Shown here: positions 4,523 through 58,792 of the stretch, piece after piece
Position numbering within the stretch: the stretch's first letter is position 1
Layout of the letters: each line of letters opens with the position of its first letter
Assembly (NCBI GenBank): GCA_016935525.1
Contig: JAFGQU010000017.1
Span: forward strand, 9,559 to 73,558
Length of the DNA: 64,000 nt
Source of the DNA: Candidatus Omnitrophota bacterium
Lineage (GTDB): Bacteria; Omnitrophota; Gorgyraeia; Duberdicusellales; 4484-171
Reading direction: 5' to 3'
Notes under the pieces: model-generated
Told to the model about the DNA's origin: nothing
Seen by the model: the letters and a program-made list of their open reading frames with translations, nothing else
Database searches by the model: none
Program-made: the position numbers and the translations under genes

Positions 4523-4559
4523 CTTTAAGTCACATAGACACAAGGTCACAAGTCACACG
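4523..4559. repeat. family A arm (left arm of cassette 1)
   Basis: aagtcacatagacacaaggtcacaagtcacacgtcat. Confidence 0.75.
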
Positions 4560-4910
4560 TCATAAAACATGATAGAACTTCCACAGTAAAGACCCAACTT
4601 GTTTCCTTGCTTTTTCTATATTAGTATATTCTTCATCTCTTAAATAATTCATTTCTTTAGAAAATTCCAGCAGATATTCTGTTTCGAATAAGGATCCTAA
4701 GGCAACATTGGCAAATTGGTTCAGTTCCCTTTTACCCTGTCTACCTGTCCCTTCGACAATATTTGTCGGGATAGACAAAGCCGCTCGGCGCAACTGAGAC
4801 GTAATACCGTATATTTCTTCTTTAGGAAACTGTTTAGTAATCATATAAACTTGTTTTGCCAATTCATTTGCCTTTTGCCAAACTAATAATTTCTTATATC
4901 CTTTCTCCAT
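4560..4910 (-). CDS. four-helix-bundle protein (23S rRNA intervening-sequence protein family, PF05635/TIGR02436; Avd-like), copy 1
   Basis: 116 aa and basic. Family hallmarks W-x-KA...FPK-EE-Y-L-SQLRRAA-SI--NI-EG. About 78% identical to copy 6. Confidence 0.85.
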   Translation of the reverse strand: MEKGYKKLLVWQKANELAKQVYMITKQFPKEEIYGITSQLRRAALSIPTNIVEGTGRQGKRELNQFANVALGSLFETEYLLEFSKEMNYLRDEEYTNIEKARKQVGSLLWKFYHVL

Positions 4911-4963
4911 CGCCCTCTCCTTTCTTTTTCCTGGGCGACATTCGGTTAAAACCTTCCCATCTC

Positions 4964-5013
4964 TGCGTGTGACTAGCCTGCCATAAGGCAGGCGTGTGTC
5001 ATGTGTCGTGTGA
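4964..5013. repeat. family A arm (right arm of cassette 1) with internal GC hairpin
   Basis: gcgtgtgactagCCTGCCataaGGCAGGcgtgtgtcatgtgtcgtgtgac. Confidence 0.75.
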
Positions 5014-6990
5014 CTTTGATGCGGGCATTTCTATCGTAAACGCAGTCCCTTCTCCGGGAACACTTTCTGCCCGCATCGTACCCCCGTGAGCTTCAATGAT
5101 CGTTTTACACTGATAAAGGCCGACGCCTAATCCTTTCTCTTTGGTCGATTGAAACGGCCGGAATAAATGGTTATCGATAAATTCTTTGCTCATACCGCAT
5201 CCGGTATCCTGTATCTTCAGCGATACGGTATTATCGCCGGTTTCGGCCTTTATAGTAAGCGTACCTTTAGTATCCATCGCTTCTATCGCGTTGAGGATCA
5301 GATTGGCTAATACCTTATTGATATAATGGGGATCGGCATCGATAATACCGCCGGGCGCGCATTCTTTGACGACTTCGATGCTCTTAAACCGGTTTTGCCC
5401 GAGCTCCGCGAGCGCCTCATCCACCAGACCGGATACAGCGCAGGGCCGCTTCTGGAGCTGCAGGTCGCCCCGTAAGGCGCGGAACTCTTCGATCAGTCTT
5501 TTCATCTTTTCGATAGTATGTTCAAGCGTGAATAACGCGTCTTTCTGGAATTCGGGATTATCGAATTTATCTTTATTCGCCGATAACATCGAGAGGTTGT
5601 TCACGTAATTTTTCACGTCATGGATGATGAATGAAGAAAGCTTATACAGCGATTCCTTTTTTTCCGCTTCCCGGATCTTCTGATAGGCGAGACAGTTCAC
5701 GATCACACTGGACGCCTGTAACGATAACAATTTAAGAAGTTCCGAATCAAAAAACACTTTCTTTTCAAAATCCAATCCGATGATCCCGATGACTTTTTTA
5801 TCTCCGTATAACGGGGAAACTATCTCCATGTGTTGCGCGTGAAAAAAAGCCGCCGCGCGGGGATATTTATCGCCTAACCCGTTATATAACGTATCGGACA
5901 GGTTAAACGGCGCGGCTTTACGGAGCATCCAATCATAAAATTCCGCTTCAAACGGTATCTGCGCGCCGAAGATGATCACTTTGACCAGACGGGCGTCCAT
6001 TATGTTTTTTACCGCGCGCTCCAGCTTCTCTTCGATCTGGGGCAGTTCGGTGACCAGCGATATCTGGTAGGTGAAATCTTCCCACAATTTCTGCCAATCA
6101 TAGGTCTGCCGGGTAACACTGCGTAAAAAGAAATATTTTATCCGGTCTTTTACGGCCGAAGAGAACACCAGCACGAAAAACACGATGACCAGGAATAATC
6201 CGGTGAGGACCGAGAACAGCACGTTCAGGTTCCAGCCGAACACCTGGAATATCTTGATAAACGCGCCGATAAAAAACAGGTACCCGCCGATCATCGATAA
6301 TGTCAACGAAGTATTCACGGCGGTGTCTTCTTTGACCATCTCGGCCGCGATCCCTCTCCGCGAAAGCGCCAGATAACATGCCGCGCCGATAAAGATACTT
6401 ACCGAAGAATAGAAAAAAATGTCCGCGTTTATGGTTTTAAACAAAAACGCGTAGGTCGCTAAAAACAGGTACGGTACCAATATGAACAACGTCCCCAGGA
6501 ACAATACGCGCACGTATTTTCTACGGCTAAGGGTCATGCTTCGTTCAAGATTGGAAAGGGTAAACGCGAGATTGATGATGAACAGAATAGAAAAATACTG
6601 GGCAAGATGAGAAAGAATAACCACAGAATCATGTTTCTCAAAATAAACGGCAGGATGGATCCATAAAATAAGGAAAAAGATAAGCCCGGCAACACCCAGT
6701 ATCGGCGCAAGGATCATACGGTACATAAATTTCTTTTTCACCGGCAATATCCCTATACTGAAAATAAACCATACAATCGGGAGAATAAACAAGCCGATAC
6801 CGAACAATACGCTCTGGTGAGCCCCTTCCAGGAAAGAAAGCTTGGAACACTCGATGACGGCTACGCTCAAAAGAGCAAACCCCGCAAGGAGATTCGCGAT
6901 ATGCCGACGACGCAGAAAATTATACGCCGCGACGATCAACAATACGACATTGATCCCGGGTACATAGGTAAAAATAAGATTATTGATCAT
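4999..6990 (-). CDS. sensor histidine kinase with large multi-TM N-terminal domain (candidate PrsK-type)
   Basis: At least 8 predicted TM helices in the first 280 aa. HisKA H-box HDVKNYVNN. HATPase_c G-boxes DTGCGM and GLGVGL. Confidence 0.85.
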   Translation of the reverse strand: MINNLIFTYVPGINVVLLIVAAYNFLRRRHIANLLAGFALLSVAVIECSKLSFLEGAHQSVLFGIGLFILPIVWFIFSIGILPVKKKFMYRMILAPILGVAGLIFFLILWIHPAVYFEKHDSVVILSHLAQYFSILFIINLAFTLSNLERSMTLSRRKYVRVLFLGTLFILVPYLFLATYAFLFKTINADIFFYSSVSIFIGAACYLALSRRGIAAEMVKEDTAVNTSLTLSMIGGYLFFIGAFIKIFQVFGWNLNVLFSVLTGLFLVIVFFVLVFSSAVKDRIKYFFLRSVTRQTYDWQKLWEDFTYQISLVTELPQIEEKLERAVKNIMDARLVKVIIFGAQIPFEAEFYDWMLRKAAPFNLSDTLYNGLGDKYPRAAAFFHAQHMEIVSPLYGDKKVIGIIGLDFEKKVFFDSELLKLLSLQASSVIVNCLAYQKIREAEKKESLYKLSSFIIHDVKNYVNNLSMLSANKDKFDNPEFQKDALFTLEHTIEKMKRLIEEFRALRGDLQLQKRPCAVSGLVDEALAELGQNRFKSIEVVKECAPGGIIDADPHYINKVLANLILNAIEAMDTKGTLTIKAETGDNTVSLKIQDTGCGMSKEFIDNHLFRPFQSTKEKGLGVGLYQCKTIIEAHGGTMRAESVPGEGTAFTIEMPASKSHDT

Positions 6991-7963
6991 TTTTTTTATC
7001 TCTGTTCCGGTTTACATACCAGGTAACCATTCGTTTCAATCCTTCCCGCAATTCTATATTCGGCACAAACCCGTCCTGACGGATCTTTTCGGACTTAAAA
7101 TGGGTCGGGGTATTGAATTTTTTAATACGGTAGGCGGTAATAGGGAAATTTATACCGGTGATCTTTCCCAGTATATCGAATATCCCGGCAAAGCACATCG
7201 TCGGCTCAAGCGGCAATCGGCACCGTAACGGCGGATAGCCCAAATGTGTGAGGATCGTTTTTACGATATCGATCGTCGTCATCTGAGGATAATCGGAATA
7301 ATTATACACGTTCAAACCCGGCCCTATACGGTTCATGGCAAAGACGGTCGCATCGACGAGGTTTTCGACATACGCGATAGATTTTATATTTTTGCCGGGC
7401 CCGACAAAAATAAACTGTTTTTTAGCGATCGAGTTTATAAGATTATACATGTTCGCGTAATTTTCCGGTCCGAATACCACCGCCGGGCGGATGATCACCG
7501 CGCTACGTGAGGGGTCCTGTAATACCCAGCGTTCGACAGCGGCTTCCGCGGCAAGTTTCGATTCTCCGTAGGGGCTCACCGGGAACGGCGAAACTTTTTC
7601 ATCAACCGGTACGGTCGCATTTCCGTATACCGCGACCGTACTGTAAAAAATGATCTTTTTAATACCCTCGGCTTCCGCGCGCTCGAGGATAGTACGGGTA
7701 CCCTCGAGGTTTACCCGAAAAAACTCATCCCGCGATACCCCGAAATCGTGATGGGCCGCGGCAAGATGGATGACCATATCGCATCCGGAAAGGACATCGC
7801 CTACCGTATCCCTATCAAGCAGGTCCCCTTGCCGGAAACGGGTAAGACCGCTTCCCGGGTAAGATTCCCGGTCCAGCCCGCTTACGGCATGGCCGTTACT
7901 CGCTAAAGCCTTTACCATGAACTTTCCGATAAATCCCGAAACTCCGATTACAGCTATATTCAT
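6980..7963 (-). CDS. NAD-dependent epimerase/dehydratase (SDR family)
   Basis: N-terminal GVSGFIGK Rossmann motif. YGESK catalytic Y-x3-K. Confidence 0.8.
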   Translation of the reverse strand: MNIAVIGVSGFIGKFMVKALASNGHAVSGLDRESYPGSGLTRFRQGDLLDRDTVGDVLSGCDMVIHLAAAHHDFGVSRDEFFRVNLEGTRTILERAEAEGIKKIIFYSTVAVYGNATVPVDEKVSPFPVSPYGESKLAAEAAVERWVLQDPSRSAVIIRPAVVFGPENYANMYNLINSIAKKQFIFVGPGKNIKSIAYVENLVDATVFAMNRIGPGLNVYNYSDYPQMTTIDIVKTILTHLGYPPLRCRLPLEPTMCFAGIFDILGKITGINFPITAYRIKKFNTPTHFKSEKIRQDGFVPNIELREGLKRMVTWYVNRNRDKKNDQ

Positions 7964-9157
7964 TTATTGCGCTCCGGTCTCTTCTCTCAATATTGTAATC
8001 GCCGCCTCCCGATGAGAGGGGCAACGAAGTGTGTTTAAATAAGGCAGCCAGAACTTTTTGTTTCTACGTACGAATATTTCCGGCAAAAGTTTTCGACGGT
8101 TAAGCTTTCTGAATATCCACGGCGCGTTCATCAAGGAAAGCAGATAGCCTTTACGCACATTTTGGCACACTTTTTTCCATTCCTGCTCTATCTTTTGAGG
8201 ATCGGAGATCGTTTCACAATAAGAATCTATGTTACGCCAATACTCTTTCTCTTCTTCTTGAGACATTAACCGTACCCCAGTAAACCCTTTATTCTGAAAA
8301 TAAGGATATAATTGGGCCTGTTTCACTTTATCGCCGGCAATGATCAATTTGATAAAATATCCCTGGTACCATAACGGCGATTTTCGTTTACCCAGATCAA
8401 ATATAAAATTACCGAGATTATAGAATATCGGCACCCCATGGTAATATTCATACCCGCTGGCGCAATGCGCGTGATGCCCGATTATGGCGGTTACTCCCAA
8501 ATCGGCGAAAAACCGGTACGTCTTCATCATATCCGGACTGGGGAGCGGGTGATATTGATATCCGCCATGGATGACCACCAACTGGATATCGGAATGTTTC
8601 TTTATCTCCCTGATCTGATAATAGTTCAAAACCGTATCCAGCGGCGCGGCTCCCGGCCTATTTTCGGCCGCGATACTGAATTCCTGTTCGGCGACATTGA
8701 GGACCGCGATACGTTTCCCTTTCACTTCCAGATATAAAGGTGTACACGCCGCCTTGAGGTTCTCCCCTATCCCTACGGTTTTGATATTGTTTTGCCGGAA
8801 GATATCCAGTGTCGAACGGATACCGTCAGCCCCCTGGTCGAAGATATGGTTATTGGCTAACGTCACGGCATCAAACATCCCGTATCTTAACGCTTCGATC
8901 ACACCGGGGCCAGCATAAAGGTTCATGCCGGTCTTGGATATCGGACGGACATTTTCGATCAAAGGACATTCAAGGTTCGTGATCGAAATATCTTTATCCT
9001 TCAATACCGGTAAGACATCGTTGAATATTTTTTCGTATTCTTTGTGTTCACAACATTCCTCAATCACTCCTCCGGGATAAAAATCACCGGTCACGATGAT
9101 CCGGATATCCTCCTGATTTCGGCCGGTAGTATCGCTTAAAAAAGAAACTGTTTTCAT
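7964..9157 (-). CDS. CapA/PgsA-family capsule biosynthesis protein (metallophosphatase-like)
   Basis: About 400 aa with a LANNHIFDQGADG-type motif and histidine-rich metallophosphatase blocks. Confidence 0.65.
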   Translation of the reverse strand: MKTVSFLSDTTGRNQEDIRIIVTGDFYPGGVIEECCEHKEYEKIFNDVLPVLKDKDISITNLECPLIENVRPISKTGMNLYAGPGVIEALRYGMFDAVTLANNHIFDQGADGIRSTLDIFRQNNIKTVGIGENLKAACTPLYLEVKGKRIAVLNVAEQEFSIAAENRPGAAPLDTVLNYYQIREIKKHSDIQLVVIHGGYQYHPLPSPDMMKTYRFFADLGVTAIIGHHAHCASGYEYYHGVPIFYNLGNFIFDLGKRKSPLWYQGYFIKLIIAGDKVKQAQLYPYFQNKGFTGVRLMSQEEEKEYWRNIDSYCETISDPQKIEQEWKKVCQNVRKGYLLSLMNAPWIFRKLNRRKLLPEIFVRRNKKFWLPYLNTLRCPSHREAAITILREETGAQ

Positions 9158-9163
9158 CGTATG

Positions 9164-11578: not shown

Positions 11579-11622
11579 TGCCTGATACGTACACGCCTTT
11601 TTTTTATCCATATATTTTTCCA

Positions 11623-19190: not shown

Positions 19191-19207
19191 AAAATTAAGG
19201 TCACAAG

Positions 19208-19468
19208 GTCACATAGACACATAGTCACAAGTTGAAGGTCACACGTTGCACGACACATAGTCACACGACTCCTCTCAGGATTTCTACAATACGAGATGCT
19301 GCTTTGCCATCCCACACACAAGTCACAACGTCACATAGACACATAGTCACAAGTTGAAGGTCACACGTTGCACGACACATAGTCACACGACTCCTCTCAG
19401 GATTTCTACAATACGGGACGCGGCTTTGCCGTCCCACACACAAGTCACAACGTCACATAGACACATAG
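19208..19468. repeat. tandem 122-bp direct repeat (2.1 units), each unit a family-A arm plus a degenerate copy of the last ~17 codons of wecB
   Basis: Unit starts at 19208, 19330 and 19452. ORF 19261..19443 encodes ...WDGKAASRIVEILRGVV, which mimics the wecB C-terminus WDGKAAQRIVEILKGDM. Confidence 0.8.
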
Positions 19469-20674
19469 TCACATGTCTCCTTTTAAAATCTCCACAATGC
19501 GCTGGGCCGCTTTCCCGTCCCATAAAGAAAGAGAAGGTAGCATTGCCGGGGGATTGTCAAGAATACGCATAGCATCGGTAATTATTTTCTCTTTATCACA
19601 ACCGACGATGATATTAGTGCCGGCATCGACCGTGATCGGCCGTTCGGTGTTCTCGCGTAACGTAAGACAGGGCACGCCTAAAACCGTGGTCTCCTCCTGC
19701 ATCCCGCCGGAATCGGTGAGAACCAGACGCGCTTCACTCATGAGTTTCAAGAAATCCAAATAGCCCAGAGGGTCTATTTGGATTAATCCATAGTCCATAG
19801 TCCGTAGTCCGTGGTTTATTTCTCCTTCTTTTCTCCATTCACGTGTGACTATGTGACTTCCCCGTTCCATAATATTTTTATACAGCGGGGTCCCGCTTAG
19901 ATATGTACATATCGGTGCGGGATGTGACTTTGTGACCTTTGCCAGAGCTTTGCGGGTACGGGGGTGGACGGGAAAGATCACCTTAATATGCCGGGATATC
20001 TCCTCTATTGCCTCCATTATTCCCTCTAAAACTTCGGGGTCGTCGACGTTTGAGGGACGATGCAGGGTCAATACCGCGTATTCTTTGGGTTTTATCCTAA
20101 GATCCTCTACTATTTTGGAATTTGCAGCTTGCTGCTTGTGCCTTAACAAAGTATCAATCATGACATTCCCCACAAAATAGATCTTATCTTCATTTACTCC
20201 TTCCCGAAGCAGATTTTCTTTGGCATCGGGTTCGGTCGTAAAAAGGTAATCCGAAATTGCGTCGGTCAATACCCGGTTGATCTCCTCCGGCATCGTCCGG
20301 TCGAAACTGCGCAGGCCCGCCTCGACATGAGCCACTTTTACGCCTAATTTAGAGGCGACCAGGGCGCAGGCAATAGTGGAATTCACATCACCAACGACTA
20401 CTACCAGGTCCGGTTTTTCTTTTATCAATACCGGTTCAAACCGTTTCATGATTTCGGCGGTCTGGGCCGCGTGAGATAAAGAACCGACCTCTAAATTGAT
20501 ATCCGGTTTAGGTATCCCTAATTCATCAAAAAACAGTTTTGACATCTTCTCGTCATAATGCTGGCCGGTATGGACAAGTACCGCTTCTATCTCGGGATGT
20601 TTTTTGTATTCATCCATGAGCGGCGCTATTTTCATGAAATTTGGTCTTGCCCCCGCCACATTAATAATCCTCAT
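19469..20674 (-). CDS. wecB: UDP-N-acetylglucosamine 2-epimerase (non-hydrolysing) carrying a ~43-aa in-frame insertion derived from a repeat element
   Basis: HTGQHYD ... LVVVGDVNST ... TDSGGMQEE epimerase_2 motifs. The insertion is encoded by 19790-19935. Confidence 0.9.
   Translation of the reverse strand: MRIINVAGARPNFMKIAPLMDEYKKHPEIEAVLVHTGQHYDEKMSKLFFDELGIPKPDINLEVGSLSHAAQTAEIMKRFEPVLIKEKPDLVVVVGDVNSTIACALVASKLGVKVAHVEAGLRSFDRTMPEEINRVLTDAISDYLFTTEPDAKENLLREGVNEDKIYFVGNVMIDTLLRHKQQAANSKIVEDLRIKPKEYAVLTLHRPSNVDDPEVLEGIMEAIEEISRHIKVIFPVHPRTRKALAKVTKSHPAPICTYLSGTPLYKNIMERGSHIVTREWRKEGEINHGLRTMDYGLIQIDPLGYLDFLKLMSEARLVLTDSGGMQEETTVLGVPCLTLRENTERPITVDAGTNIIVGCDKEKIITDAMRILDNPPAMLPSLSLWDGKAAQRIVEILKGDM
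19790..19935. repeat. composite family C + family A + AGCGGGACCCCGCT/TATAAAAAT sub-element inserted in-frame in wecB
   Basis: Reverse complement of 19830-19935 aligns at about 85% to 57555-57660. ccatagtccatagtccgtagtccgtgg at 19793-19820 is family C. Confidence 0.75.
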
Positions 20675-20689: not shown

Positions 20690-20765
20690 AATATTACAAA
20701 ATTACAAATTACAATAAACAAACTACAAACAAAAAGAAGAATAAACAAATCACAAACAGAAATAA
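20690..20765. repeat. family B (ATTACAA/ACAAACAA units) arm, left of cassette 2
   Basis: attacaaaattacaaattacaataaacaaactacaaacaaaaag... Confidence 0.55.
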
Positions 20766-20767: not shown

Positions 20768-21121
20768 CTATTTTGATTTATCAATAATAGCCGTAAAAAT
20801 ATTCCTAATCTCCTTGGATTCTTTTATATTAACGTTAATCTTATCCATAAACTCTTCACCGACTTCTTTTAAAAGTTCTAACCAGTATGAGCTTTCTTTA
20901 CATTCCTTTCTCGCGATCCGCATCCTATGGATAAAATCTTTTTTACTTAACTTTTCATTTGCTTCCCGGTAATTTGCTCCGACAGAACCGGATGATCGTA
21001 TCAGTTGGCTGATAATCTTTGAACTGATTACACTCTTAGGCAACATCTTGCATAACTTGATTACATCTTTAGCAAATTCAAGGGTTCTTTTCTCTAAATC
21101 GTATGGTTTATTTGCATCCAT
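20768..21121 (-). CDS. four-helix-bundle protein (PF05635/TIGR02436), copy 2
   Basis: 117 aa with the family pattern (FAKDV..LCKMLPK ... SQLIRSSGSVGANYREA). Divergent from the other copies. Confidence 0.8.
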   Translation of the reverse strand: MDANKPYDLEKRTLEFAKDVIKLCKMLPKSVISSKIISQLIRSSGSVGANYREANEKLSKKDFIHRMRIARKECKESSYWLELLKEVGEEFMDKINVNIKESKEIRNIFTAIIDKSK

Positions 21122-21165
21122 GTTTATCTCATTTGTAATTTGTATATTGTCTATTGTTTATTTCG
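21122..21165. repeat. family B arm, right of cassette 2 (inverted: ttgtaatttgtatattgtctattgtttatt)
   Basis: Reverse complement gives aataaacaatagacaatatacaaattacaaatg. Confidence 0.55.
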
Positions 21166-38910: not shown

Positions 38911-38931
38911 TATCTTTACTCCTTATCATAT

Positions 38932-39070
38932 TGACGATTTCGGTGATTAGTATAGGGATTACGGTGATCGCCCAAGGATTACAGTGATTGGCTTTATATT
39001 CGCTTTCAACTCCGGCCGTTCTTATGTTCCTTACTCTACTCATTGTAATCTCTCCTTAATCACGTAATCG
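38932..39070. repeat. family I (GATTACnGTGAT units) solo inverted-array hairpin
   Basis: Left arm ggtgattagtatagggattacggtgatcgcccaaggattacagtgattgg. Right arm cattgtaatctctccttaatcacgtaatcgg. Confidence 0.6.
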
Positions 39071-40142: not shown

Positions 40143-40158
40143 ATTTTTCTTCTCCTTC

Positions 40159-40572
40159 TTAATAGCGGTTAGCGGATAGCGGTGAGCGATTAGAATCAGA
40201 TTCTTGCTCATCACTAAACTTCCCTATTCTCTTAACATACGTCATCAATAATTTTATAACCTCAGACAATAGACTTATTGCCTGATCATACTCTTTCTGA
40301 TTGCACAAGCTGATATCTTTGCTTAAAGACAATTGAGTTTCCAGCTCAGCACAAGACCCCAACGCGATTTTGAGAAACTGAATATATTCTTTTGAACCAC
40401 GCATATACCCTTCAGCGATATTTGAAGGGATAGATATAGCTGAACGTCTTATTTGTGATGTCATCGTATACATTTCGTCTTTAGGGAATTTTTGAGTCAT
40501 TTTATAGATCATAATGACTAAATCGTAAGATTTTTGATATGCCCCTAATTCTTTATAACTTTTTATTTTCAT
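40159..40572 (-). CDS. four-helix-bundle protein (PF05635/TIGR02436), copy 5, with repeat-encoded C-terminal tail
   Basis: 137 aa. LGAYQKSYDL ... FPKDEMYTMTSQIRRSAISIPSNIAEG. Confidence 0.8.
   Translation of the reverse strand: MKIKSYKELGAYQKSYDLVIMIYKMTQKFPKDEMYTMTSQIRRSAISIPSNIAEGYMRGSKEYIQFLKIALGSCAELETQLSLSKDISLCNQKEYDQAISLLSEVIKLLMTYVKRIGKFSDEQESDSNRSPLSANRY
40160..40215. repeat. family E arm, left of cassette 5
   Basis: aatagcggttagcggatagcggtgagcgattagaatc. Confidence 0.7.
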
Positions 40573-40584: not shown

Positions 40585-40680
40585 TCTCTATCCGCTAATC
40601 GCTATACGCTAGCCGCTATTTAAGCGCGTAGGGCAGAGTAGCGAACGAGCCGCCACTCCGCCACTACCGCTGTATTCACA
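40585..40680. repeat. family E arm, right of cassette 5 (plus GCCACTMC units)
   Basis: tctctatccgctaatcgctatacgctagccgctattt is the reverse complement counterpart of the left arm. Followed by gccactccgccactaccgc. Confidence 0.7.
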
Positions 40681-41497: not shown

Positions 41498-41556
41498 GGT
41501 TTAGTCTCTGGTCTCTGGTCTCTGGTCTCTGGTCTCTGGTCTATAGTCTACCGCCT
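41498..41556. repeat. family D-type perfect tandem (GGTCTCT)x5 followed by ggtctatagtctacc
   Basis: ggtttagtctctggtctctggtctctggtctctggtctctggtctatagtctaccgcc. Confidence 0.8.
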
Positions 41557-43717: not shown

Positions 43718-43903
43718 TTAATAAAGCGTTTCGACAAAGCTCACCAGATCGTTAAATTCTTCTTTAGTATACACCCGCCAGCCCCGCCAATCCCGTTTGG
43801 CTTTACGGACTTTTCCGGAATTTTCCCAACGGATGATCGTTTTAGGGACCACTCCGATCTTTTCGGCAACTTCGGTAATCGTCATTCTTTCTTCAGCTAT
43901 CAT
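43718..43903 (-). CDS. small HTH DNA-binding protein (excisionase/MerR-like HTH_17 type)
   Basis: 61 aa. ITEVAEKIGVVPKTIIRWENSGKV is a typical AlpA/Xis-type HTH. It is the first gene after the long leader. Confidence 0.55.
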   Translation of the reverse strand: MIAEERMTITEVAEKIGVVPKTIIRWENSGKVRKAKRDWRGWRVYTKEEFNDLVSFVETLY

Positions 43904-43910: not shown

Positions 43911-43950
43911 CCTAGTTACGTAACGAGTAACGCGACACGCGTAACGCGTC
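43911..43950. repeat. family H (GTAACGnn units) short array at the 5' end of the locus
   Basis: agttacgtaacgagtaacgcgacacgcgtaacgcgtcc. Confidence 0.4.
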
Positions 43951-44071: not shown

Positions 44072-44347
44072 TTTAAGAAAAACGCAAACAATAGCTAATA
44101 AGTCATTGCGAACGAATGAGTTATAAAAAATATATTTTGTAAGCGCTTTCAGAGGTATTTTGAGGGGCCTTTAGAGAAGCTGTTTTTGTTTAAAAAAATG
44201 GATATATTCACCATATATCAAGCCGAAATCCATGGCTATATCTACAAGCATTTGCACATCAATAGGTTATAAACGTCGCTTTTCAAGGACACACTGTCTA
44301 AAAAGATGGACACATTTCCCCGCCGAAAAGATTGATTCCGGCGGGGA

Positions 44348-44477
44348 GTCACAAAGTCACATAGACACATAGTCACACGTACGCCTTTTCGGCAAGTCAC
44401 AAGGACACAAAGTCATACATATTCGGTTTCACGTGTGACGTGTGTCGTGTGACTAGCCTGTCAACAGACAGGCGTGT
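44348..44477. repeat. family A solo hairpin (long loop) followed by GC hairpin GCCTGTCaacaGACAGGC
   Basis: Left arm 44348-44380, right arm 44431-44453. The loop shares attcggtttc with the 57640 copy and cggcaagtcacaa with 57530. Confidence 0.8.
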
Positions 44478-44862: not shown

Positions 44863-44911
44863 AACGCCTTAATTGTACCTTTTGATAGTGGTTTGTCAAC
44901 CCGGACAAAAT

Positions 44912-45036
44912 GATCAATAATCAATTAGCAATTATCATTTAGCAATGATGGAAAAAATAAAATACTGTCCGTGAGTGCCCCTCATTTAAATTTTTCATTG
45001 ATAATTGCTAAATGCTAAATTTGCATTGAGCATTTA
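44912..45036. repeat. family F solo inverted-array hairpin
   Basis: Left arm gatcaataatcaattagcaattatcatttagcaatgatgg. Right arm cattgataattgctaaatgctaaatttgcattgagcat. Confidence 0.7.
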
Positions 45037-47045: not shown

Positions 47046-47115
47046 TTAAAAATCCTTCTGTTAATATCTTCTTAGAATAATACATATTCGGGAAGTAGAA
47101 ATGTTTTATTTAGAA

Positions 47116-47832: not shown

Positions 47833-47844
47833 ACCGATTGAAAG

Positions 47845-47940
47845 TCACATAGACACATAGTCACATGGTCACACGTTAAAACCCAGAAAACATTATTTCT
47901 TTCCCCCGCGTGTGACGTGTGTCGTGTGACGTGTGACATG
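47845..47940. repeat. family A solo hairpin between hisB and hisA
   Basis: agtcacatagacacatagtcacatggtcacacgt, loop 33 nt, gtgtgacgtgtgtcgtgtgacgtgtgacatgt. Confidence 0.8.
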
Positions 47941-47943
47941 TAA

Positions 47944-48594: not shown

Positions 48595-48602
48595 TTCTCT
48601 CC

Positions 48603-48688
48603 TCGCAAGTCACATAGTCACAAGGTCACATAGTCACACGTAGGAAAGGGAATCTTACGTGTGTCGTGTGACGTGTGTCGTGTGACTC
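48603..48688. repeat. family A solo hairpin between hisD and hisB
   Basis: agtcacatagtcacaaggtcacatagtcacacgt, loop 15 nt, acgtgtgtcgtgtgacgtgtgtcgtgtgactc. Confidence 0.8.
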
Positions 48689-48689
48689 A

Positions 48690-52531: not shown

Positions 52532-52958
52532 CGGTCAATCCTTGCATGATATCTTCATACTGAAAACCCCGCTGGACAAGATAACGCATGATCGCTCTCG
52601 GTGTTTTATCGCGGCATTTTTTTTCAATAAGTGTTTTAATCATATCGGTTTTATCGAATTCACCCCGGGCGGCGGTCACCGCCTGGCGTATCGTCTCATG
52701 ATCAATACCGAATCTTTTCAGTTCAAAGGCGACTTTACGCTCTCCGAACGCGTCCCGGAATTTCTGGCGGGCATAAAGGAAAGCGAAATCACGGTCATTC
52801 ACATAACGATTCTCGACCAGATATTCGACCGTCTTTTCAACGACGCTCTTAGAAAACTTTTTCCGCCGCAAGCGAGTCTTCAGCTCAAATGTCGTGCGGT
52901 CCCGGTATTTTAAAAGAAGAAACGAATATTGTAAGGCTTTCTTATACTCTTCCTGCAA
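52521..52958 (-). CDS. recX: recombination regulator RecX
   Basis: 145 aa helical-repeat protein in the recA neighbourhood. Overlaps alaS by 11 nt. Confidence 0.8.
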   Translation of the reverse strand: MQEEYKKALQYSFLLLKYRDRTTFELKTRLRRKKFSKSVVEKTVEYLVENRYVNDRDFAFLYARQKFRDAFGERKVAFELKRFGIDHETIRQAVTAARGEFDKTDMIKTLIEKKCRDKTPRAIMRYLVQRGFQYEDIMQGLTDED

Positions 52959-54386
52959 TTACTTATTTTCTTCTTCTCGTATGACTACGTAACCTTTATT
53001 CGTCTTGATCAGGCAACTCCCCTTTACCCTGGAAGTCACACTTTCGAAATCTCTTTTATTTTTGATGGGTTTACCTTCGATGTTCACGATAACATCTCCT
53101 GTTTCTAACCCGCCTCTATCGGCCGGGGAATCCGGCTGGATAAAGGACACGACAACCCCTTCTTTTTCCTGGATCATGAACCTTTGCTGCGCGTAAGGAG
53201 TGATCTCTTCTACCTGCATCCCGCGGAACGAAGATTTTTGCGTACCGGAAGGGTTTTCTTCTTCGCGAGTGGAATCCGGCCGGACGCCGATTTTTACCCG
53301 TACGGTCATCTCTTTCCCTGCGCGAAGTATTTTTACCGGGATTTTTTCACCGACCGGGGTCGCGGTCACGATCCGCACAAGATCCCGGGTCGTCTTTATA
53401 TCCTGATCATTATATCCTAAAATAAGGTCGCCTTCTTTGATCCCGGCTTTCTCTGAAGGTGAATCACTGAACACTTTCACGACAATGACTCCGGTGCTTT
53501 CTTTTATCCCGAAATAACTCCGCAGGTCATCATTAAGGTCCTGGATATTTACGCCCAGCCAGCCATAAGAAATAGTCTCCCCGCGGATCAGTTTTTTGAG
53601 AATATTTTTCACCTGATCGACCGGGATCGCAAATCCCAGCCCCTGATATCCGCCGGTCGTCGTAATGATCGCCGTATTGATACCGATGATCTTTCCTTCC
53701 AGATTCACCAGCGGCCCGCCGCTATTACCGGGATTGATCGCCGCGTCGGTCTGAATAAGGTCGTCGTAAGAGCGATCACGACGCCCAAGAGCCGGCAGAA
53801 AACGATGTAACGCGCTGATGACCCCCACGGTAACAGTAGGTTCGGGATTATTGATCGCAAACCCAAACGGGTTACCTACCGCAACGACCCATTGCCCTAT
53901 CTTTAAATCAACCGAATCTCCCAGCGGTGCCACCGGCAGATCCCGGGCATCGATCTTGATCACGGCCAGGTCCGAACGGGGATCGCTCCCTTTTACTTCG
54001 GCAGCGAATTCTCTGCCGTCAGAAAGCTTCACTTTTATATCGCTGGCTCCGGCAATAACATGTTCATTAGTAAGAATATACCCGTCGTTATTGATGATCA
54101 CTCCGCTGCCTAACCCTGTCCGCTGGAATTCTTTCTGCGGTATTTCTCCGAAAAATTCATCGAAAAACCTGCGGAACGTATCATCTTCCATACTGCCGAA
54201 CGGAGCGTTGAAATAGACGCCGCCGGCTTTTTCTTTAATGACCGCGCTGATCGATACGACCGCCGGGCCGACCTGGGTCGCGACTTTTATCGTCGCGTTC
54301 TCCAGATCCTTATACCCCTGGCCGTAGCCGCATAAAGCGAACATGCTGCATATGATACACACAGACACTATAGCGGTTATTCTCAT
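52959..54386 (-). CDS. htrA: periplasmic serine endoprotease DegP/HtrA (trypsin-like domain plus 2 PDZ)
   Basis: GSGVIINNDGYILTNEHV and GNSGGPLVN catalytic-triad motifs and a signal peptide. Confidence 0.9.
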   Translation of the reverse strand: MRITAIVSVCIICSMFALCGYGQGYKDLENATIKVATQVGPAVVSISAVIKEKAGGVYFNAPFGSMEDDTFRRFFDEFFGEIPQKEFQRTGLGSGVIINNDGYILTNEHVIAGASDIKVKLSDGREFAAEVKGSDPRSDLAVIKIDARDLPVAPLGDSVDLKIGQWVVAVGNPFGFAINNPEPTVTVGVISALHRFLPALGRRDRSYDDLIQTDAAINPGNSGGPLVNLEGKIIGINTAIITTTGGYQGLGFAIPVDQVKNILKKLIRGETISYGWLGVNIQDLNDDLRSYFGIKESTGVIVVKVFSDSPSEKAGIKEGDLILGYNDQDIKTTRDLVRIVTATPVGEKIPVKILRAGKEMTVRVKIGVRPDSTREEENPSGTQKSSFRGMQVEEITPYAQQRFMIQEKEGVVVSFIQPDSPADRGGLETGDVIVNIEGKPIKNKRDFESVTSRVKGSCLIKTNKGYVVIREEENK

Positions 54387-54392
54387 CCTCCA

Positions 54393-55409
54393 TCACCCCC
54401 CGATTGCAATTCCGGTTTTTAAGGCTTCCTCGATATTCGCACGTAATTGGGCGTCAGTCTTCAAGAGATCTCTTAGTTGTTCGCGGCCCTGGCTGATATT
54501 TTTATCTTTGAATGAAAACCAACTTCCCGATTTTTTCAATATCCCGTTATCTATCGCCGCATCGATCAAAGCTCCGGTCTTAGATACTCCTTCGTTATAC
54601 AGGATCTCAAATACCGTTTCTTTAAAAGGCGGAGCGACTTTGTTCTTTACGATCTTCGCTTTTACCTGATTACCTACCACTTTGCCGTCGGCTGAGGTGA
54701 TCACCGCTTTACGGCGTAGATCTATCCGTACCGACGAATAGAATTTAAGCGCCCGGCCCCCGGGAGTCGTCTCCGGATTTCCGAACATCACCCCGATCTT
54801 TTCACGGATCTGGTTAATAAACGCGACACAAGTCTTTGATTTACTTATTGCCGCGGTAAGTTTACGTAATGCCTGACTCATCAGCCGGGCCTGAAGGCCG
54901 ATCCGGGCATCGCCCATCTCTCCTTCGATTTCAGCTCGGGGGGTGAGCGCGGCTACCGAATCGACCACAATAAGGTCGACCGCGTTACTCCGTACGAGGG
55001 TCTCGACGATCTCTAACGCCTGTTCACCGGTATCCGGTTGAGATACAAGCAGATCATCAAGGTTCACTCCGATCATTTTTGCGTACGTAGGGTCGAACGC
55101 GTGTTCGGCATCGATAAACGCAGCTACCCCGCCGGTCTTTTGCGCCTCGGCAATGATGCTCAAAGTAAGGGTAGTCTTTCCTGAAGATTCCGGGCCGAAT
55201 ATCTCGATTACCCGGCCGCGAGGGATCCCCCCTACGCCTAAGATAACATCCAGAGAAAATATCCCGGTAGGGATCGCGGCGACATCGAGGTGCATACTGT
55301 CCCCTAACCGCATGATCGCTCCTTTACCGAATTGTTTTTCGATCTGGCCTAACGCTAAATCCAACGCTTTTGCTTTGTTTTGTGTCGGAGAAGATTTCGC
55401 TTTTTGCAT
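54393..55409 (-). CDS. recA: recombinase RecA
   Basis: GPESSGKTT Walker [15 protein letters not shown] and the L2 loop. Confidence 0.95.
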
Positions 55410-55445
55410 ATATGACCTCCTATTTTTTTAAGTGTTCAGTCTTTA

Positions 55446-55520
55446 GTCCAGAGTCCGTGGACCGTGGTCCATAGACCGCAGTCTATTCTCTATTGTCTAC
55501 TGACTATCGACTATCCGCTG
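55446..55520. repeat. family C solo element upstream of recA
   Basis: agtccagagtccgtggaccgtggtccatagaccgcagtc ... ctactgactatcgactatccgc. Confidence 0.65.
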
Positions 55521-55630
55521 TTCCAAGGGAACCTTATTATACCGTGCAAAAAATACAATGTCAAAAATCCAAAATAATGTTTATTTACAGTATTCAGGAG
55601 ATGGATTTTCACAGAACGAATACGTTTTAA

Positions 55631-55885
55631 ACCACGGAGGGCACTGAGACCACAGAGAGTATTCGAGGTTATTTCTCGTTATTTGAAAAAATCTGTAATG
55701 CTCAAATCGCTCATAGAGCGTTTTGATTCAAGGCACACAGGGCGTGGGAATAAAAAGATTATTTTATTTCTCCGCCCTGCGCGCCCTGAATTTCTCTGCG
55801 AGATATTTATCGCAGGGAAATTACAGATTTTCTCCTCTGTGTACTCTGCGCGCTCTGTGGTTGAATCTCTTTGGTACACACAGAT
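55631..55885. repeat. family G inverted arms enclosing a ~170-bp core
   Basis: Left accacggagggcactgagaccacagagagtat. Right ctcctctgtgtactctgcgcgctctgtggttgaatctctttggtacacacagatatc. Confidence 0.65.
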
Positions 55886-55911
55886 ATCTTAGATCCTCTA
55901 GTTTATAAGTT

Positions 55912-56523
55912 TTAAAACCTATGCTCTTTTTGAGAAAGAAGGCTTGTAATATTTTTATGATGACGGGCTACTATGAAAATAAATATAAAAAAACAAAACC
56001 CTTTGATCTCCCAGGGTAACGGCGTAAAAAGAGCGCTCACAAAAAATATCCCGGCAGCCGATAACGACGATAACGAAACGTATTTGAAACCGTAAAAAAG
56101 TAAAATCCAGGAAACGATACCGGCGCAAAGCGGAATTATCAGCACCGGAAATGGAACACATAACCCGCATATCCCTCCGGCACTGGTTGAGACCCCTTTA
56201 CCGCCTTTAAATCTTAAAAAAATCGTCCAGTTATGGCCGGCAACTGCCGCAAAAGTCACGAGCACATATATACCGATAGGACAATCTTTGGCCACTAACA
56301 TCAGTAACGGGACGACGATAAATCCTTTTAAAAAGTCCAGGATAAATACTAACACGCCCCATTTTTTCCCGATCACACGGGTCACGTTCGTCGCACCGAT
56401 ATTACCTGACCCGTGTTGACGGATATCCAGCCCGCCGACACCCCGGGCGATGAGATAACCGAAAGGAATACTTCCTACCAGATAGCTGATGACTAGAGCG
56501 ATTATGTACATAAGGATATTCAA
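55912..56523 (-). CDS. plsY: glycerol-3-phosphate acyltransferase PlsY
   Basis: GSGNIGATNVTR motif. Confidence 0.9.
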   Translation of the reverse strand: MNILMYIIALVISYLVGSIPFGYLIARGVGGLDIRQHGSGNIGATNVTRVIGKKWGVLVFILDFLKGFIVVPLLMLVAKDCPIGIYVLVTFAAVAGHNWTIFLRFKGGKGVSTSAGGICGLCVPFPVLIIPLCAGIVSWILLFYGFKYVSLSSLSAAGIFFVSALFTPLPWEIKGFCFFIFIFIVARHHKNITSLLSQKEHRF

Positions 56524-57068
56524 ATACGAGTGCGGGCCACTTCTTGATTAAGAGCTATGATCCCCCGGTGGATATATCCCAAGCCGGAAATCAACGTGAA
56601 CAGGATAGCAATACGCACCATCCATAACGAAAACGGCCATTCAAAAAGGATACACAAAATCGTCAACATCTGGAAAAAAGTAGTCAATTTGCCCCATAAC
56701 GTAGGATTGATCGGCGCGTCGATCTTCATGAAATGCAACACCCCGATGCCTAAGAGGATAATAAAATCCCGGCTCACGACTACCAACACAAATACCAGTG
56801 GTATCGGGAATTTCAATAAATACAGCACTACGCAGGAGGTAAGTAAAAACAGCTTATCCGCCAGGGGATCGATTACCTGCCCTATTTCTGATTTTTCCTT
56901 TTTAATACGAGCGGCAAGACCGTCGAGGAAATCGCTCAATACCGCCAGGATAAACGTTGCTATCGCAAAATATTTTAGATAAGGATAATTTTTCGAATAG
57001 ATAAGTAACGATACGAATACCGGGATCAAAATAATACGCAGTACAGAAAGTTTATCGGCTAAGCTCAT
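56520..57068 (-). CDS. pgsA: CDP-alcohol phosphatidyltransferase (PgsA-like)
   Basis: DFLDGLAAR ... DPLADK CDP-OH_P_transf motif. Confidence 0.8.
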   Translation of the reverse strand: MSLADKLSVLRIILIPVFVSLLIYSKNYPYLKYFAIATFILAVLSDFLDGLAARIKKEKSEIGQVIDPLADKLFLLTSCVVLYLLKFPIPLVFVLVVVSRDFIILLGIGVLHFMKIDAPINPTLWGKLTTFFQMLTILCILFEWPFSLWMVRIAILFTLISGLGYIHRGIIALNQEVARTRI

Positions 57069-57076
57069 ATACTATA

Positions 57077-57130
57077 GGTCACACGCTTGTCTATCGACAA
57101 GCAAGTCACAAGGTCACATAGTCACACGGC
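57077..57130. repeat. family A half-element with a perfect internal hairpin GCTTGTCtatcGACAAGC
   Basis: ggtcacacgcttgtctatcgacaagcaagtcacaaggtcacatagtcacacgg. Confidence 0.75.
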
Positions 57131-57185
57131 ATCTAAATTGCGTAACCGTAGGATGTAGACCGATACGGGTTTCGTTACCATTAGA

Positions 57186-57491
57186 TTAGTTGCTTTTATT
57201 GCCTATCAATTCAAGCGATGTCCCATCATACGGACAATATTCCAGAGAAGAAGTGAATCTTCTGCCGCAGACCGGACAGAATTTTTTCTCTAATTGTTCA
57301 CCGACTACCGCACCGGTCACGGCTCCCACACCGGCCCCGATAGCGGCTCCTTCGCCGGTATGTCCGGATTGGTGTCCGATAATCGCGCCTAACGCGCCGC
57401 CGGCAACGGCACCGGTTCCGGCTCCTCTTTGCACAGTAGTACATCCGGCTACAAGCATACAGATCAATACAAATAATGCGATTTTCTTCAT
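57186..57491 (-). CDS. glycine-zipper lipoprotein with C-terminal zinc-ribbon
   Basis: Start moved to MKKIALFVLICMLVAGC, which gives a lipobox. GxxxG-rich segment GAGTGAVAGGALGAIIGH ... and CPVCGRRF ... CPYDG. Confidence 0.55.
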   Translation of the reverse strand: MKKIALFVLICMLVAGCTTVQRGAGTGAVAGGALGAIIGHQSGHTGEGAAIGAGVGAVTGAVVGEQLEKKFCPVCGRRFTSSLEYCPYDGTSLELIGNKSN

Positions 57492-57554
57492 TGTCTCCTC
57501 CTCTTCTTGCCTGCTTCGCAGGCAGTCAGGCATCTGCCTTCGGCAAGTCACAAT

Positions 57555-57700
57555 GACACATCCCGCACCGAGATTTTTCTTATCCAGCGGGACCCCGCTG
57601 TATAAAAATATTATGGAACGGGGAGGTCACATAGGCACACGTATTCGGTTTCACGTGTGACGTGTGACGTGTGTCGTGTGACATGTGACGTGTTTTACTC
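57555..57700. repeat. composite family A element containing the AGCGGGACCCCGCT palindrome + TATAAAAATATTATGG sub-element
   Basis: 57560-57660 is about 85% identical to the reverse complement of the wecB insert. Right arm acgtgtgacgtgtgacgtgtgtcgtgtgacatgtgacgtgt. Confidence 0.8.
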
Positions 57701-58270
57701 CAGCATGGTGACCCGTTGAGGCGGCCACCAGATAAAAAGAGCTTTTCCGACCACATCCTGTTCGTCAACAAACCCCCAGAACCGGCTGTCTAAAGAAGCA
57801 TAACTATTATCACCTAACGCAAAATATTTCTCCTGGGGGACGACGATCACAGCGCCTTCTTTACCATAATCACCTTGATTATAATAAAAATTGCGGGCCA
57901 CCCGGGCATCAGTGACAAGGGTCCCATTACGGTACACATTGCCTTCTTTAATCTCTATGGTGTCTCCCGGTAACCCGATCACACGTTTAATATAGGCCTT
58001 TTTACGGTCATGAGGCGGGATAAAGACAATAATTTCGTCATGGACGGGGCTGCGCCATCCGGGGATACGTAACGGAGTAAAAGGGATCTTAGGGCCGTAG
58101 GTGACTTTTGAAACAAAGATCTTATCGCCCGGTTTGAGCGTAGGGACCATAGACGTAGTCGGGATCTTATAGATCTGGAAGAAAAACGTACGCAGGAATA
58201 TCGCGATTGCCGCGGCAATGACTATCGATTCGACCCATTCTCTTACAACACCTTTTTTTCTCGTTTCCAT
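57695..58270 (-). CDS. lepB: signal peptidase I
   Basis: SMVPTLKPGD and GDNSYASLDSRFWG boxes. Confidence 0.9.
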   Translation of the reverse strand: METRKKGVVREWVESIVIAAAIAIFLRTFFFQIYKIPTTSMVPTLKPGDKIFVSKVTYGPKIPFTPLRIPGWRSPVHDEIIVFIPPHDRKKAYIKRVIGLPGDTIEIKEGNVYRNGTLVTDARVARNFYYNQGDYGKEGAVIVVPQEKYFALGDNSYASLDSRFWGFVDEQDVVGKALFIWWPPQRVTMLE

Positions 58271-58324
58271 AATATAATAAGATTAACAAATAACTTCTAA
58301 AGGAGCAAGCAAATAATTCCTTAT

Positions 58325-58362
58325 TATAAGTCACAAGGTCACAAAGACACAAGGTCACATGT
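58325..58362. repeat. family A arm (left arm of cassette 6)
   Basis: aagtcacaaggtcacaaagacacaaggtcacatgtc. Confidence 0.75.
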
Positions 58363-58712
58363 CAAAGAGAATGATAAAATTTCCACAATAAAGCCCCGAC
58401 ATGTCTACGTAACATCTCTATTTCACTATATTTATCAGCATTCAAATATCCCATTTCACGGCAAAAATCCAATAGATATTCAGTCTCAAACAATGAGCCT
58501 AAAGCAATATTAACAAATTGCTTCAATTCTCTTTTACCCTGCCGGCCCGTCCCCTCGACAATATTTGTCGGAATAGATAAAACCGCTCGGCGCAATTGAG
58601 AAGTGATTGCATAAATTTCTTCTTTGGGAAATTGTCTAGTAAGAGCATACACCGTCTTAGCCAGTTCATTAGCTTTCTGCCAGGCTAATAATTTTTTATA
58701 CCCTTTCTCCAT
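58362..58712 (-). CDS. four-helix-bundle protein (PF05635/TIGR02436), copy 6
   Basis: 116 aa. About 78% identical to copy 1. Confidence 0.85.
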   Translation of the reverse strand: MEKGYKKLLAWQKANELAKTVYALTRQFPKEEIYAITSQLRRAVLSIPTNIVEGTGRQGKRELKQFVNIALGSLFETEYLLDFCREMGYLNADKYSEIEMLRRHVGALLWKFYHSL

Positions 58713-58747
58713 CGCCCAACTCCTTTCTTCTCCTGGGCGATCTCTGT

Positions 58748-58792
58748 ATTTTTCACATGTGACTTTGTGACTATGTGACGTGTGACCTTGAT
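58748..58792. repeat. family A arm (right arm of cassette 6)
   Basis: cacatgtgactttgtgactatgtgacgtgtgacctt. The reverse complement ends ...gtcacatgtg, like the left arm. Confidence 0.75.

Follow-up and report, generated by a model that had tools for sequence, protein, structure and literature searches.

Four-helix-bundle genes of the 23S rRNA intervening-sequence family nested between inverted tandem arrays in operon spacers of an Omnitrophota bacterium

A 64,000-nucleotide stretch of DNA from a Candidatus Omnitrophota bacterium (GenBank assembly GCA_016935525.1, contig JAFGQU010000017.1, positions 9,559 to 73,558 of the forward strand; hereafter the window) contains six genes for small four-helix-bundle proteins of the family named after members encoded in intervening sequences (IVSs) of 23S rRNA. 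On the coding strand, each gene is preceded by a short-period tandem array and followed by the reverse complement of that array. We consider it likely, with a probability of roughly 0.6, that the six loci are discrete mobile cassettes of the 23S rRNA IVS type residing in operon spacers, and that hairpins lacking the open reading frame (ORF) are their derivatives. A cassette would consist of the 5' array, a short leader, the four-helix-bundle ORF, and the reverse-complementary 3' array. Comparison with related loci carries this reading: the cassette moves and is passed on as one piece, purifying selection maintains its protein, the arms stay complementary while the unit differs between protein clades, and ORF-less hairpins with cassette arms exist, in one case (locus L031) at a site that is filled in relatives.

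Six family members and their flanking arrays

The six ORFs named in a preliminary description of the window, made from the sequence alone, were confirmed at the same coordinates and lie on the minus strand, as do all neighbouring genes. Membership in PF05635/TIGR02436, taken here as a match that spans the full domain of ~105 residues and exceeds the curated profile cut-off, had been proposed on the basis of sequence hallmarks and was borne out by profile hidden Markov model (HMM) searches for all six proteins (PF05635, 72.6–137.3 bits against a cut-off of 33.8, E values of 3.5e-20 to 2.7e-40; TIGR02436, 87–128 bits against a cut-off of 24). A search of all window ORFs of at least 70 aa with an HMM derived from these proteins identified exactly these six and no seventh member. 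Copies 1 and 6 are 78% identical, as had been estimated, and both carry arms of the same family (family A, below); copies 2–5 share 24–41% identity with copy 1. All six proteins are basic (pI 8.6–9.4), and S38, Q39, R42, S46, N50, and E53 are invariant among them, in agreement with the helix-2 motif S-Q-x2-R-x3-S-x3-N-x2-E given for the family (PMC3936711). The closest solved chains are XCC0516 (2gsc, E 2.8e-21) and 2rld, with five chains in each deposit. No nuclease or transposase family was matched in a Pfam scan of the six proteins, the only further hits being sub-threshold matches to the related bAvd family (below) and, for copy 4, one stray sub-threshold hit to CSTF2_hinge. An anti-phage defence system was rejected because none of the six proteins matched a PADLOC defence model at E ≤ 0.01.

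The proteins are also distantly related to Avd, the accessory protein of diversity-generating retroelements (DGRs), which is a basic four-helix-bundle pentamer bound to structured RNA together with the reverse transcriptase (PDB 4DWL; PMC10053308). Homology and basic character are common to both, and the kinship asserted in the preliminary description stands to that extent; every match, however, is sub-threshold (bAvd, PF22296, 24–35 bits against a cut-off of 40; Avd equivalog NF033474, 20–36.8 bits in five of the six proteins, copy 2 having no match, against a cut-off of 80). These weak matches favour reading the genes as a remnant or part of a DGR in which the proteins act as Avd, a reading that is refuted for the window as it stands and to which we give practically no credence. 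Apart from the scores below the curated cut-offs, six copies are present, each between housekeeping or polysaccharide genes, and no reverse transcriptase domain was found among the window ORFs scanned (~47 of the 52 genes outside the family), template/variable repeat pairs not having been searched for. The same scan revealed no transposase or integrase domain, consistent with the earlier statement that the window encodes none of these enzymes and that the six genes belong neither to a DGR nor to a classical insertion sequence (IS). A classical IS or a miniature inverted-repeat transposable element was likewise rejected: inverted ends are present, but there is no transposase domain in the ORFs scanned, and no duplication was seen at the junctions examined, none of which could be placed to the base.

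The arms of the six cassettes are built mostly of heptamers, with ~4–5 units per arm. Inverted octamer arms had been described around every copy; inverted arrays are indeed present at all six, but the period is 7 in families B–E, and family A combines a period of 7 (5' arm) with one of 8 (3' arm). Similarly, the four divergent paralogs do carry differing units, assigned to families B–E, yet families C and D have a common TAGTC core, which indicates that the families are not fully discrete. Complementarity between flanks was scored by Smith–Waterman alignment against shuffles, because flank energies obtained with RNA duplexfold had too large a background (median −43 kcal/mol). Copies 2–6 scored 45–57 (shuffle means 20–36) and occupy ranks 2–6 among the 56 window genes tested, rank 1 being held by lepA, a gene flanked by two family-A hairpins. 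The arms of copy 1 are weaker by alignment (27 versus a null of 20 ± 3); a 26-nt mini-hairpin splits its 5' arm, and its arms also differ in period. When whole cassettes (476–551 nt) were folded with RNAfold, an arm:arm stem of 22–66 bp closed all six, in both the minimum free energy (MFE) structure and the ensemble, so the expectation that the flanks fold as stems is upheld by prediction. Chance or low complexity as the source of the arms was rejected by the shuffle nulls, by control ORFs, and by recurrence across phyla.

All features of the cassettes lie on the minus strand. Copy 1 (4560..4910; 116 aa; PF05635 E 2e-36) is located between histidine-kinase and sigma-54 response-regulator genes. 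Its 5' arm of family A (GTCACAC/GACACAC; 4964..5016) includes the stop codon of the upstream gene and contains the nested mini-hairpin GCCTGCCTTATGGCAGGC, and its 3' arm (TGTGACnn, 4.9 copies; 4527..4562) ends 2 nt before the Shine–Dalgarno sequence of the downstream gene. Copy 6 (58362..58712; 116 aa; E 6e-35), between lepA and the signal-peptidase gene lepB, also has family-A arms: the 5' arm (58742..58788; 86% complementary) starts 3 nt past the lepA stop codon, and the 3' arm (58328..58369) comprises 3.8 copies of the octamer TGTGACyT. Copy 2 (20768..21121; 117 aa; E 3.5e-20), between glycosyltransferase and UDP-GlcNAc 2-epimerase genes, carries family B, with a 5' arm of ACAAATn units (21127..21165) and a 3' array of ~5 copies of TTTGTAA (20690..20765), of which the part at 20697–20734 is paired in the MFE structure. 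Copy 3 (34251..34604; 117 aa; E 2.5e-36) separates genes for an NAD-dependent epimerase/dehydratase and a UDP-glucose dehydrogenase; its family-C 5' arm and leader (TAGTCGA/GGTGGTC heptamers, ~9 copies; 34605..34730) face a 3' arm at 34193..34250, with MFE pairing that runs into the end of the ORF, up to 34290.

The 3' arms of copies 4 and 5 form part of the coding sequence: each falls within the 3' end of its ORF and encodes a C-terminal extension. Copy 4 (36519..36926; 135 aa; E 2.7e-40) is found between diacylglycerol-kinase and nucleotidyl-transferase genes. Its family-D 5' arm (TAGTCGC/TAGTCTC/TGGTCTC heptamers; 36941..36988; 85% complementary) overlaps the stop codon of the upstream gene, and its 3' arm (36509..36557) overlaps the start of the downstream gene. 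Copy 5 (40159..40572; 137 aa; E 4.7e-36) lies between genes for an AAA_22 ATPase and the ParA-like ATPase of the polysaccharide cluster, with family-E arms at 40586..40624 (ATAGCGG heptamers, 4.6 copies; 82% complementary) and 40158..40195.

The mismatch between 7- and 8-nt periods in family A has a structural consequence, in that the predicted stem alternates between 6-bp helices and asymmetric 1x2 internal loops. The same combination of 5' GTCACAC/GACACAC units at period 7 and 3' TGTGACnn units at period 8 was observed in the family-A hairpins at 47838–47943, 48600–48688, 60600–60700, 35681–35784, and 44385–44475. More generally, because neither 7 nor 8 is divisible by three, arrays of a unit containing TAG or TGA supply stops in every reading frame, which may be relevant to an element inserted at the ends of genes but could just as well follow from base composition.

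The purine-rich leader with the gene's Shine–Dalgarno sequence is itself paired in several cassettes. In the related locus L004, the leader (484–541) pairs with a pyrimidine tract after the stop codon (934–987), and in copies 1 and 6 (4911–4945 and 58713–58745) the leader is contained in a small CGCCC...GGGCG hairpin that ends at the ATG. The paired leader hints at translational control of the four-helix-bundle gene.

Relocation of the cassette and its correspondence with the protein

Related loci (numbered with the prefix L) were collected with four of the six proteins, taking one genome per species. The resulting 80 loci come from Omnitrophota, Atribacterota, Bacteroidota, Planctomycetota, Bacillota, Acidobacteriota, Desulfobacterota, Campylobacterota, CPR bacteria, and ANME-1 archaea, the closest cassette relatives being in metagenome-assembled genomes (MAGs) of Omnitrophota. 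A metagenome scan with copy 1 yielded 80 more loci.

Comparison of these loci defines the cassette as a discrete unit. Among L004, L021, and L002, homology is limited to the ~430–500-nt cassette (85–91% nucleotide identity) and the flanks are unrelated; the same holds for L056 and L068 at ~70% identity. The left edge common to L004 and L021 (ATTATTTAA-ACAGTAT...) provides the stop codon of two unrelated upstream genes. An alignment of copy 1, copy 6, and L011 places homology from the 5' arm to the last 3' unit, and in a conserved Flavobacterium operon the gap that holds the cassette varies between genomes. At a site where L031 carries a full cassette, L035 lacks both arms and ORF, which indicates that arms and ORF can arrive or leave together. 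Finally, at the very site where L035 and L061 contain arms and ORF, L031 has the two arms separated by a loop of ~40 nt. Judged from sequence comparison, these three states (empty, filled, and arms-only) are what would be expected of a mobile element with internally deleted derivatives. Of the possibilities raised in the preliminary description, the one in which protein and arms are inherited together as a mobile cassette is supported by these states and by the cassette-limited homology. Values of dN/dS between 0.04 and 0.15 in ten protein pairs point to strong purifying selection on the encoded protein.

The arrays recur well beyond the window. An arm score of at least 40 was obtained for 45% of 75 testable family genes compared to 6.7% of 416 other ORFs at the same loci (Fisher p = 2e-15), a control set that is impure, since several of its high scorers are ~120-aa ORFs and at least some of these are among 20 extra paralogs found. 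Tandem Repeats Finder (TRF) detected arrays downstream in 94 of 105 cassettes and upstream in 77, with a period of 7 in ~82% and of 8 in ~11%, periods of 6 and 9 being rare. The median is 4.3–4.4 copies per array, and the histogram peaks at 4–5. Unit sequence varies between loci while both arms remain complementary. Units of the 5' arm are enriched in a TAG/AGT core (47% versus 20% when shuffled, z = 6), and the 5' arm has more G than C in 50 cassettes, versus 10 with the opposite bias; families A and B of the window belong to this inverted minority. Clusters of three to four paralogs in 10 kb that differ in their arm units were observed at L011 (Omnitrophota MAG JACRHP010000019), L040, L007, L042, and L078.

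That the arm family tracks the protein had been proposed from the window, where the claim rests on one pair, copies 1 and 6. Outside data bear it out. Arm 6-mers are shared by 100% of cassette pairs whose proteins are at least 80% identical, by 38% at 65–80% identity, and by ~2–3% at lower identity. GTCAC/GTGAC is present on both arms in 17 of 25 cassettes with at least 65% protein identity to copy 1, compared to 1 of 51 at 50–65% (p = 4e-10), and the 21 loci of this A type lie in at least 12 unrelated gene contexts. The sister clade has other 8-nt units. The nearest genome relative of copies 1 and 6, a paralog in L011 (59–65% identity), also has GTCAC arms, and the 3' arm is more conserved than the ORF, even in L011. 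Copies 1 and 6 have a common arm unit although dS between them is ~1.75 and hence saturated. Retention of the unit past synonymous saturation indicates that it is constrained or homogenised within a protein clade rather than simply inherited neutrally.

Such retention is also an argument for a different reading, in which the arrays are cis-elements of host regulation at operon junctions and the four-helix-bundle paralogs are putative trans-acting binders, one clade per array family. Much as TRAP recognises GAG repeats, a pentamer would contact approximately five tandem units in single-stranded RNA; binding to one arm would open or close the stem and thereby tune processing, stability, or translation of the flanking cistrons, and a gene placed inside one of its own sites would be autoregulated. 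In favour of this, most window hairpins are gene-less and several lie in housekeeping operons (hisDBA, cmk–lepA–lepB), copy number peaks at 4–5 units, the solved homologues form pentamers, the proteins are basic, and the arrays have an orientation bias and a common TAG core. Aklujkar et al. independently proposed that paired octa- and heptanucleotide arrays of Geobacter metallireducens bind global regulators (PMC2700814). Regulatory sites would not be expected to show homology limited to the cassette in unrelated contexts, presence and absence at orthologous sites, or many paralogs per 10 kb. We hold this reading to be rather unlikely, and it is compatible with relocating cassettes of the IVS type.

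Intervening sequences, other known systems, and evidence against mobile cassettes

The closest known relative of the cassettes is the ORF-carrying 23S rRNA IVS, of which the window is best taken to hold an operon-borne, array-armed, multi-family form. ORF-carrying IVSs, which encode S23p, are known from Coxiella burnetii, Leptospira, Brucella, and Haemophilus and are regarded as selfish and possibly once mobile (PMC4990558). The Coxiella IVS (helix 45) has a 28-bp terminal stem and, ahead of the S23p ATG, tandem heptamers (GACAGAT); RNase III cleavage was mapped at the first repeat, and an S23p homologue is a pentameric toroid (PMC4990558). The window cassettes resemble IVSs in their PF05635 protein, in their length of ~430–560 nt, and in the terminal inverted repeats around a sense-oriented loop ORF; in addition, Coxiella has tandem heptamers, variable in number, between stem and ATG. 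The predicted stems of all six cassettes support the layout put forward earlier, a stem with an ORF in its loop, which agrees with that of the IVS. The differences are equally clear. IVSs lie in a helix of 23S rRNA (25 or 45), whereas the cassettes lie in mRNA operon spacers, as had been stated: they are found between protein-coding genes, and a search with Rfam detected rRNA neither in the window nor at 15 related loci. In the window, the arms themselves are tandem arrays, several arm families and paralogs occur together, and ORF-less hairpins are abundant. Window-type ORFs are under purifying selection, in contrast to the decaying Coxiella ORF, and RNase III excision has been demonstrated for IVSs, whereas the cassettes are known from sequence and predicted folds.

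By analogy with these systems, a simple model would suggest how the cassette operates. Counts of promoter- or terminator-like signals at the cassettes were no higher than in shuffles; with no promoter or terminator of its own, the cassette is probably transcribed within the host operon. The arms would pair into a stem of ~25–60 bp and loop out the ORF, which would limit damage to the host operon, and the stem would be a likely RNase III substrate, as experimentally shown for rRNA IVSs. The basic, presumably pentameric protein probably binds arrays of its own cassette family, ~4–5 units per arm, in an interaction that may serve maintenance, processing, or spread of the element; the match between ~4–5 units per arm and five subunits, by analogy with the solved homologues, is no more than suggestive. 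ORF-less hairpins would arise by internal deletion.

It is important to note that several observations weigh against mobile cassettes of this type. Approximately half of the sampled family members have no strong arms within 150 nt. The cassette encodes no mobility enzyme, we know of no catalytic motif in the four-helix bundle, and neither a target-site duplication nor a base-precise junction was found at the junctions examined, which could not be resolved to the base. The correspondence between protein and arm holds at the level of clades and not absolutely. Below ~65% protein identity the arm unit is usually different, some proteins at 62% identity differ in their units, and some distant ones (48–50% identity) have units in common; a strict one-protein-one-unit rule is not established. 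Additional paralogs thus pair with repeat families non-randomly within a clade, as the preliminary description would have it, but a few distant proteins share units. The ORF of the Coxiella IVS is thought to be unexpressed and decaying (PMC4990558).

Furthermore, an excess of G:U pairs, the wobble signature that a stem in the sense RNA should leave, was absent among arm mismatches (G:U 102 versus A:C 149 in one set and 115 versus 141 in another; pooled, 217 versus 290). Complementarity could accordingly be kept at the DNA level, by quasipalindrome correction, by inter-arm gene conversion, or through a protein that recognises double-stranded DNA. The lack of G:U excess also favours a reading in which the arrays are hairpin or cruciform targets, or homology arms, for host recombination or for transposases encoded elsewhere, and the four-helix-bundle gene is cargo that spreads among hairpins of the same family by arm recombination. 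Recombination between arms would by itself yield covariation of protein and arm. The arms-only hairpin at a site filled in relatives would fit, as would the IS110- and IS481-family insertion sequences that lie at fixed distances from the paired arrays of G. metallireducens (PMC2700814); in the window, a gene between two neighbouring family-A hairpins scores as a cassette, which illustrates how arrays could capture DNA. We judge this reading improbable. L035 lacks arms altogether at a site occupied by arms and ORF in L031, arms of ~30–35 nt with imperfect units offer little length for RecA-type recombination, and neither the strong purifying selection on the protein nor the conservation of a 7–8-nt period and TAG core across phyla would be explained.

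Cassettes of the IVS type can be compared with further repeats described in other organisms. Short tandemly repeated repetitive (STRR) heptamers of filamentous cyanobacteria form hairpins, for example in the hupS/hupL gap, for which roles in transcript stability and translational coupling have been proposed (PMC2670836). Like the ORF-less hairpins of the window, they consist of inverted 7-bp tandem units between co-transcribed genes; organisms and unit sequences are different, and no link to a four-helix bundle was found in the literature searched. The paired arrays of G. metallireducens, termed global regulator binding sites of classes 1–3 and interpreted as DNA sites of the IHF/HU type, occur in several families per genome and dozens of copies per family, between operon genes such as nifD|nifK, proB|proA, and trp genes (PMC2700814). 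They share with the cassettes the 4–5 tandem units of 7–8 nt paired with opposite-strand units at variable distance, and differ in that any enclosed gene is an IS110 or IS481 transposase, no four-helix-bundle gene being reported. Papers on cas loci describe PF05635 genes wedged between cas genes and do not mention arrays. A full-text search, outside which most subscription journals fall, returned no literature linking non-rRNA PF05635 genes to flanking inverted tandem arrays, and in the literature searched, of incomplete coverage, no paper connects rRNA IVSs, STRR hairpins, Geobacter arrays, and the PF05635 genes of cas loci.

The REPIN–RAYT system, reportedly described by Nunvar in 2010 and by Bertels and Rainey in 2011, is said to comprise a gene between cognate inverted repeats together with dispersed gene-less hairpins. 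Its repeat family tracks the protein clade, a likeness to the window cassettes. RAYT is a Y1 HUH transposase, usually single-copy per family, and the REP arms are not tandem heptamers; this system was rejected, as the cassettes encode no Y1 HUH domain and the four-helix bundle is the sole protein inside the arms. Correia/NEMIS elements of Neisseria are inserted in operons and form transcript hairpins cut by RNase III, encode nothing, and have terminal inverted repeats that are not tandem arrays. Drosophila foldback elements combine terminal inverted repeats of short tandem subrepeats with an optional central ORF; they are eukaryotic DNA transposons unrelated in sequence.

A farther-reaching idea, advanced here as a long shot, would make the PF05635 pentamer a sequence-specific reader of its own arrays, each subunit contacting approximately one unit and each arm offering about five. 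It would be the sole element-encoded factor of a transposase-free foldback cassette that, in many phyla, seeds operon spacers and rRNA helices and decays to STRR-like hairpins, and rRNA IVSs, STRR hairpins, Geobacter arrays, and perhaps Avd would be of one origin.

PF05635/TIGR02436 is a very large family without an assigned function, named after a few rRNA-IVS members, for which a testable genomic grammar can now be formulated: a gene nested in inverted arrays of ~4–5 units with a period of 7–8, a unit that tracks the protein clade, and a relocating cassette that leaves gene-less hairpins. This grammar joins four separately described and unexplained phenomena, namely rRNA IVSs, cyanobacterial STRR hairpins, Geobacter heptamer/octamer arrays, and four-helix-bundle genes in cas and other operons. 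In practical terms, such arrays could be mistaken for CRISPR-like repeats or regulator binding sites, and they may fragment short-read assemblies: the sole public contig that encodes copy 1 exactly (L001, Logan SRR13394437, 15.4 kb) ends within ~700 nt after the gene.

Gene-less hairpins, solo arrays, and surrounding genes

Other intercistronic gaps of the window contain ten or more ORF-less hairpins or solo arrays that belong to the arm families of the cassettes. The preliminary description had placed each gene in a cognate repeat family of its own; that exclusivity was overstated, as most hairpins of the same families in the window have no gene. Again all of the features with assigned strand lie on the minus strand. 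ORF-less family-A hairpins are located at 35681..35784 (dG −35.5), with the mini-hairpin of copy 1 in its 5' arm; at 44385..44475, also with a mini-hairpin, followed by a solo 3'-type array at 44340–44380; in the hisB/hisA gap at 47838..47943; in the hisD/hisB gap at 48600..48688; at 57610..57682, with an extended 5' array of 5.9 copies opposite a short 3' arm; and in the cmk/lepA gap at 60600..60700. The loops at 44385..44475 and 57610..57682 hold AACCGAAT, a sequence that is also present in the leader of copy 1. Among the remaining families, a hairpin of TAGTCGC/GGTCGAT-type units at 37420..37495 is related to families C and D, a family-C type hairpin (TAGTCGA... / ...GGTCCACGGAC) at 55425..55515 lies upstream of recA, and a solo array of GACCAGA x 5.6 at 41502..41549 corresponds to the 3' arm type of family D and has no partner nearby. 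A known RNA family was rejected as a candidate, no Rfam family having been matched at the gathering threshold.

A further repeat family, of TTAGCAAT / ATTGCTAA heptamers, forms hairpins at 2990–3100 and 44905–45035. It has no four-helix-bundle gene of its own within the window; a cognate gene may be present in another part of the genome. Further solo arrays, likewise with no inverted partner in the vicinity, were noted at 3105–3141 (TAGCGG type) and at 2950–2990 and 57085–57130 (family-A 3' type); these may reflect long-distance pairing or half-decayed hairpins. At 19191–19477, between polysaccharide flippase-like and UDP-GlcNAc 2-epimerase genes, a 122-nt unit is repeated 2.2 times with 96% identity; it contains only 3'-type family-A octamers and the small GC hairpin GGGACGGCAAAGCCGCGTCCC, and no complementary 5'-type array is nearby.

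The window represents core chromosome with every gene on the minus strand. It encodes aromatic amino-acid genes, cmk, lepA, lepB, pgsA, plsY, recA–recX–alaS, htrA, hisD–hisB–hisA, and a TonB-dependent receptor, as well as a large polysaccharide/sugar-nucleotide cluster and a sigma-54 two-component pair. The cassettes fill gaps between a stop codon and the next Shine–Dalgarno sequence, copies 2–5 within the polysaccharide cluster. At the head of the polysaccharide export genes, a 61-aa ORF on the minus strand (43718–43903; MIAEERMTITEVAEKIGVVPKTIIRWENSGKV...) has the look of a small helix-turn-helix protein of the MerR/excisionase type, and a palindrome of CGTTACG repeats (43919–43949) lies ahead of it. 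Direct repeats resembling AATCAC(C/T)GTAATC, a separate and non-inverted type, precede two genes at 38911–39000 and 63200–63267.

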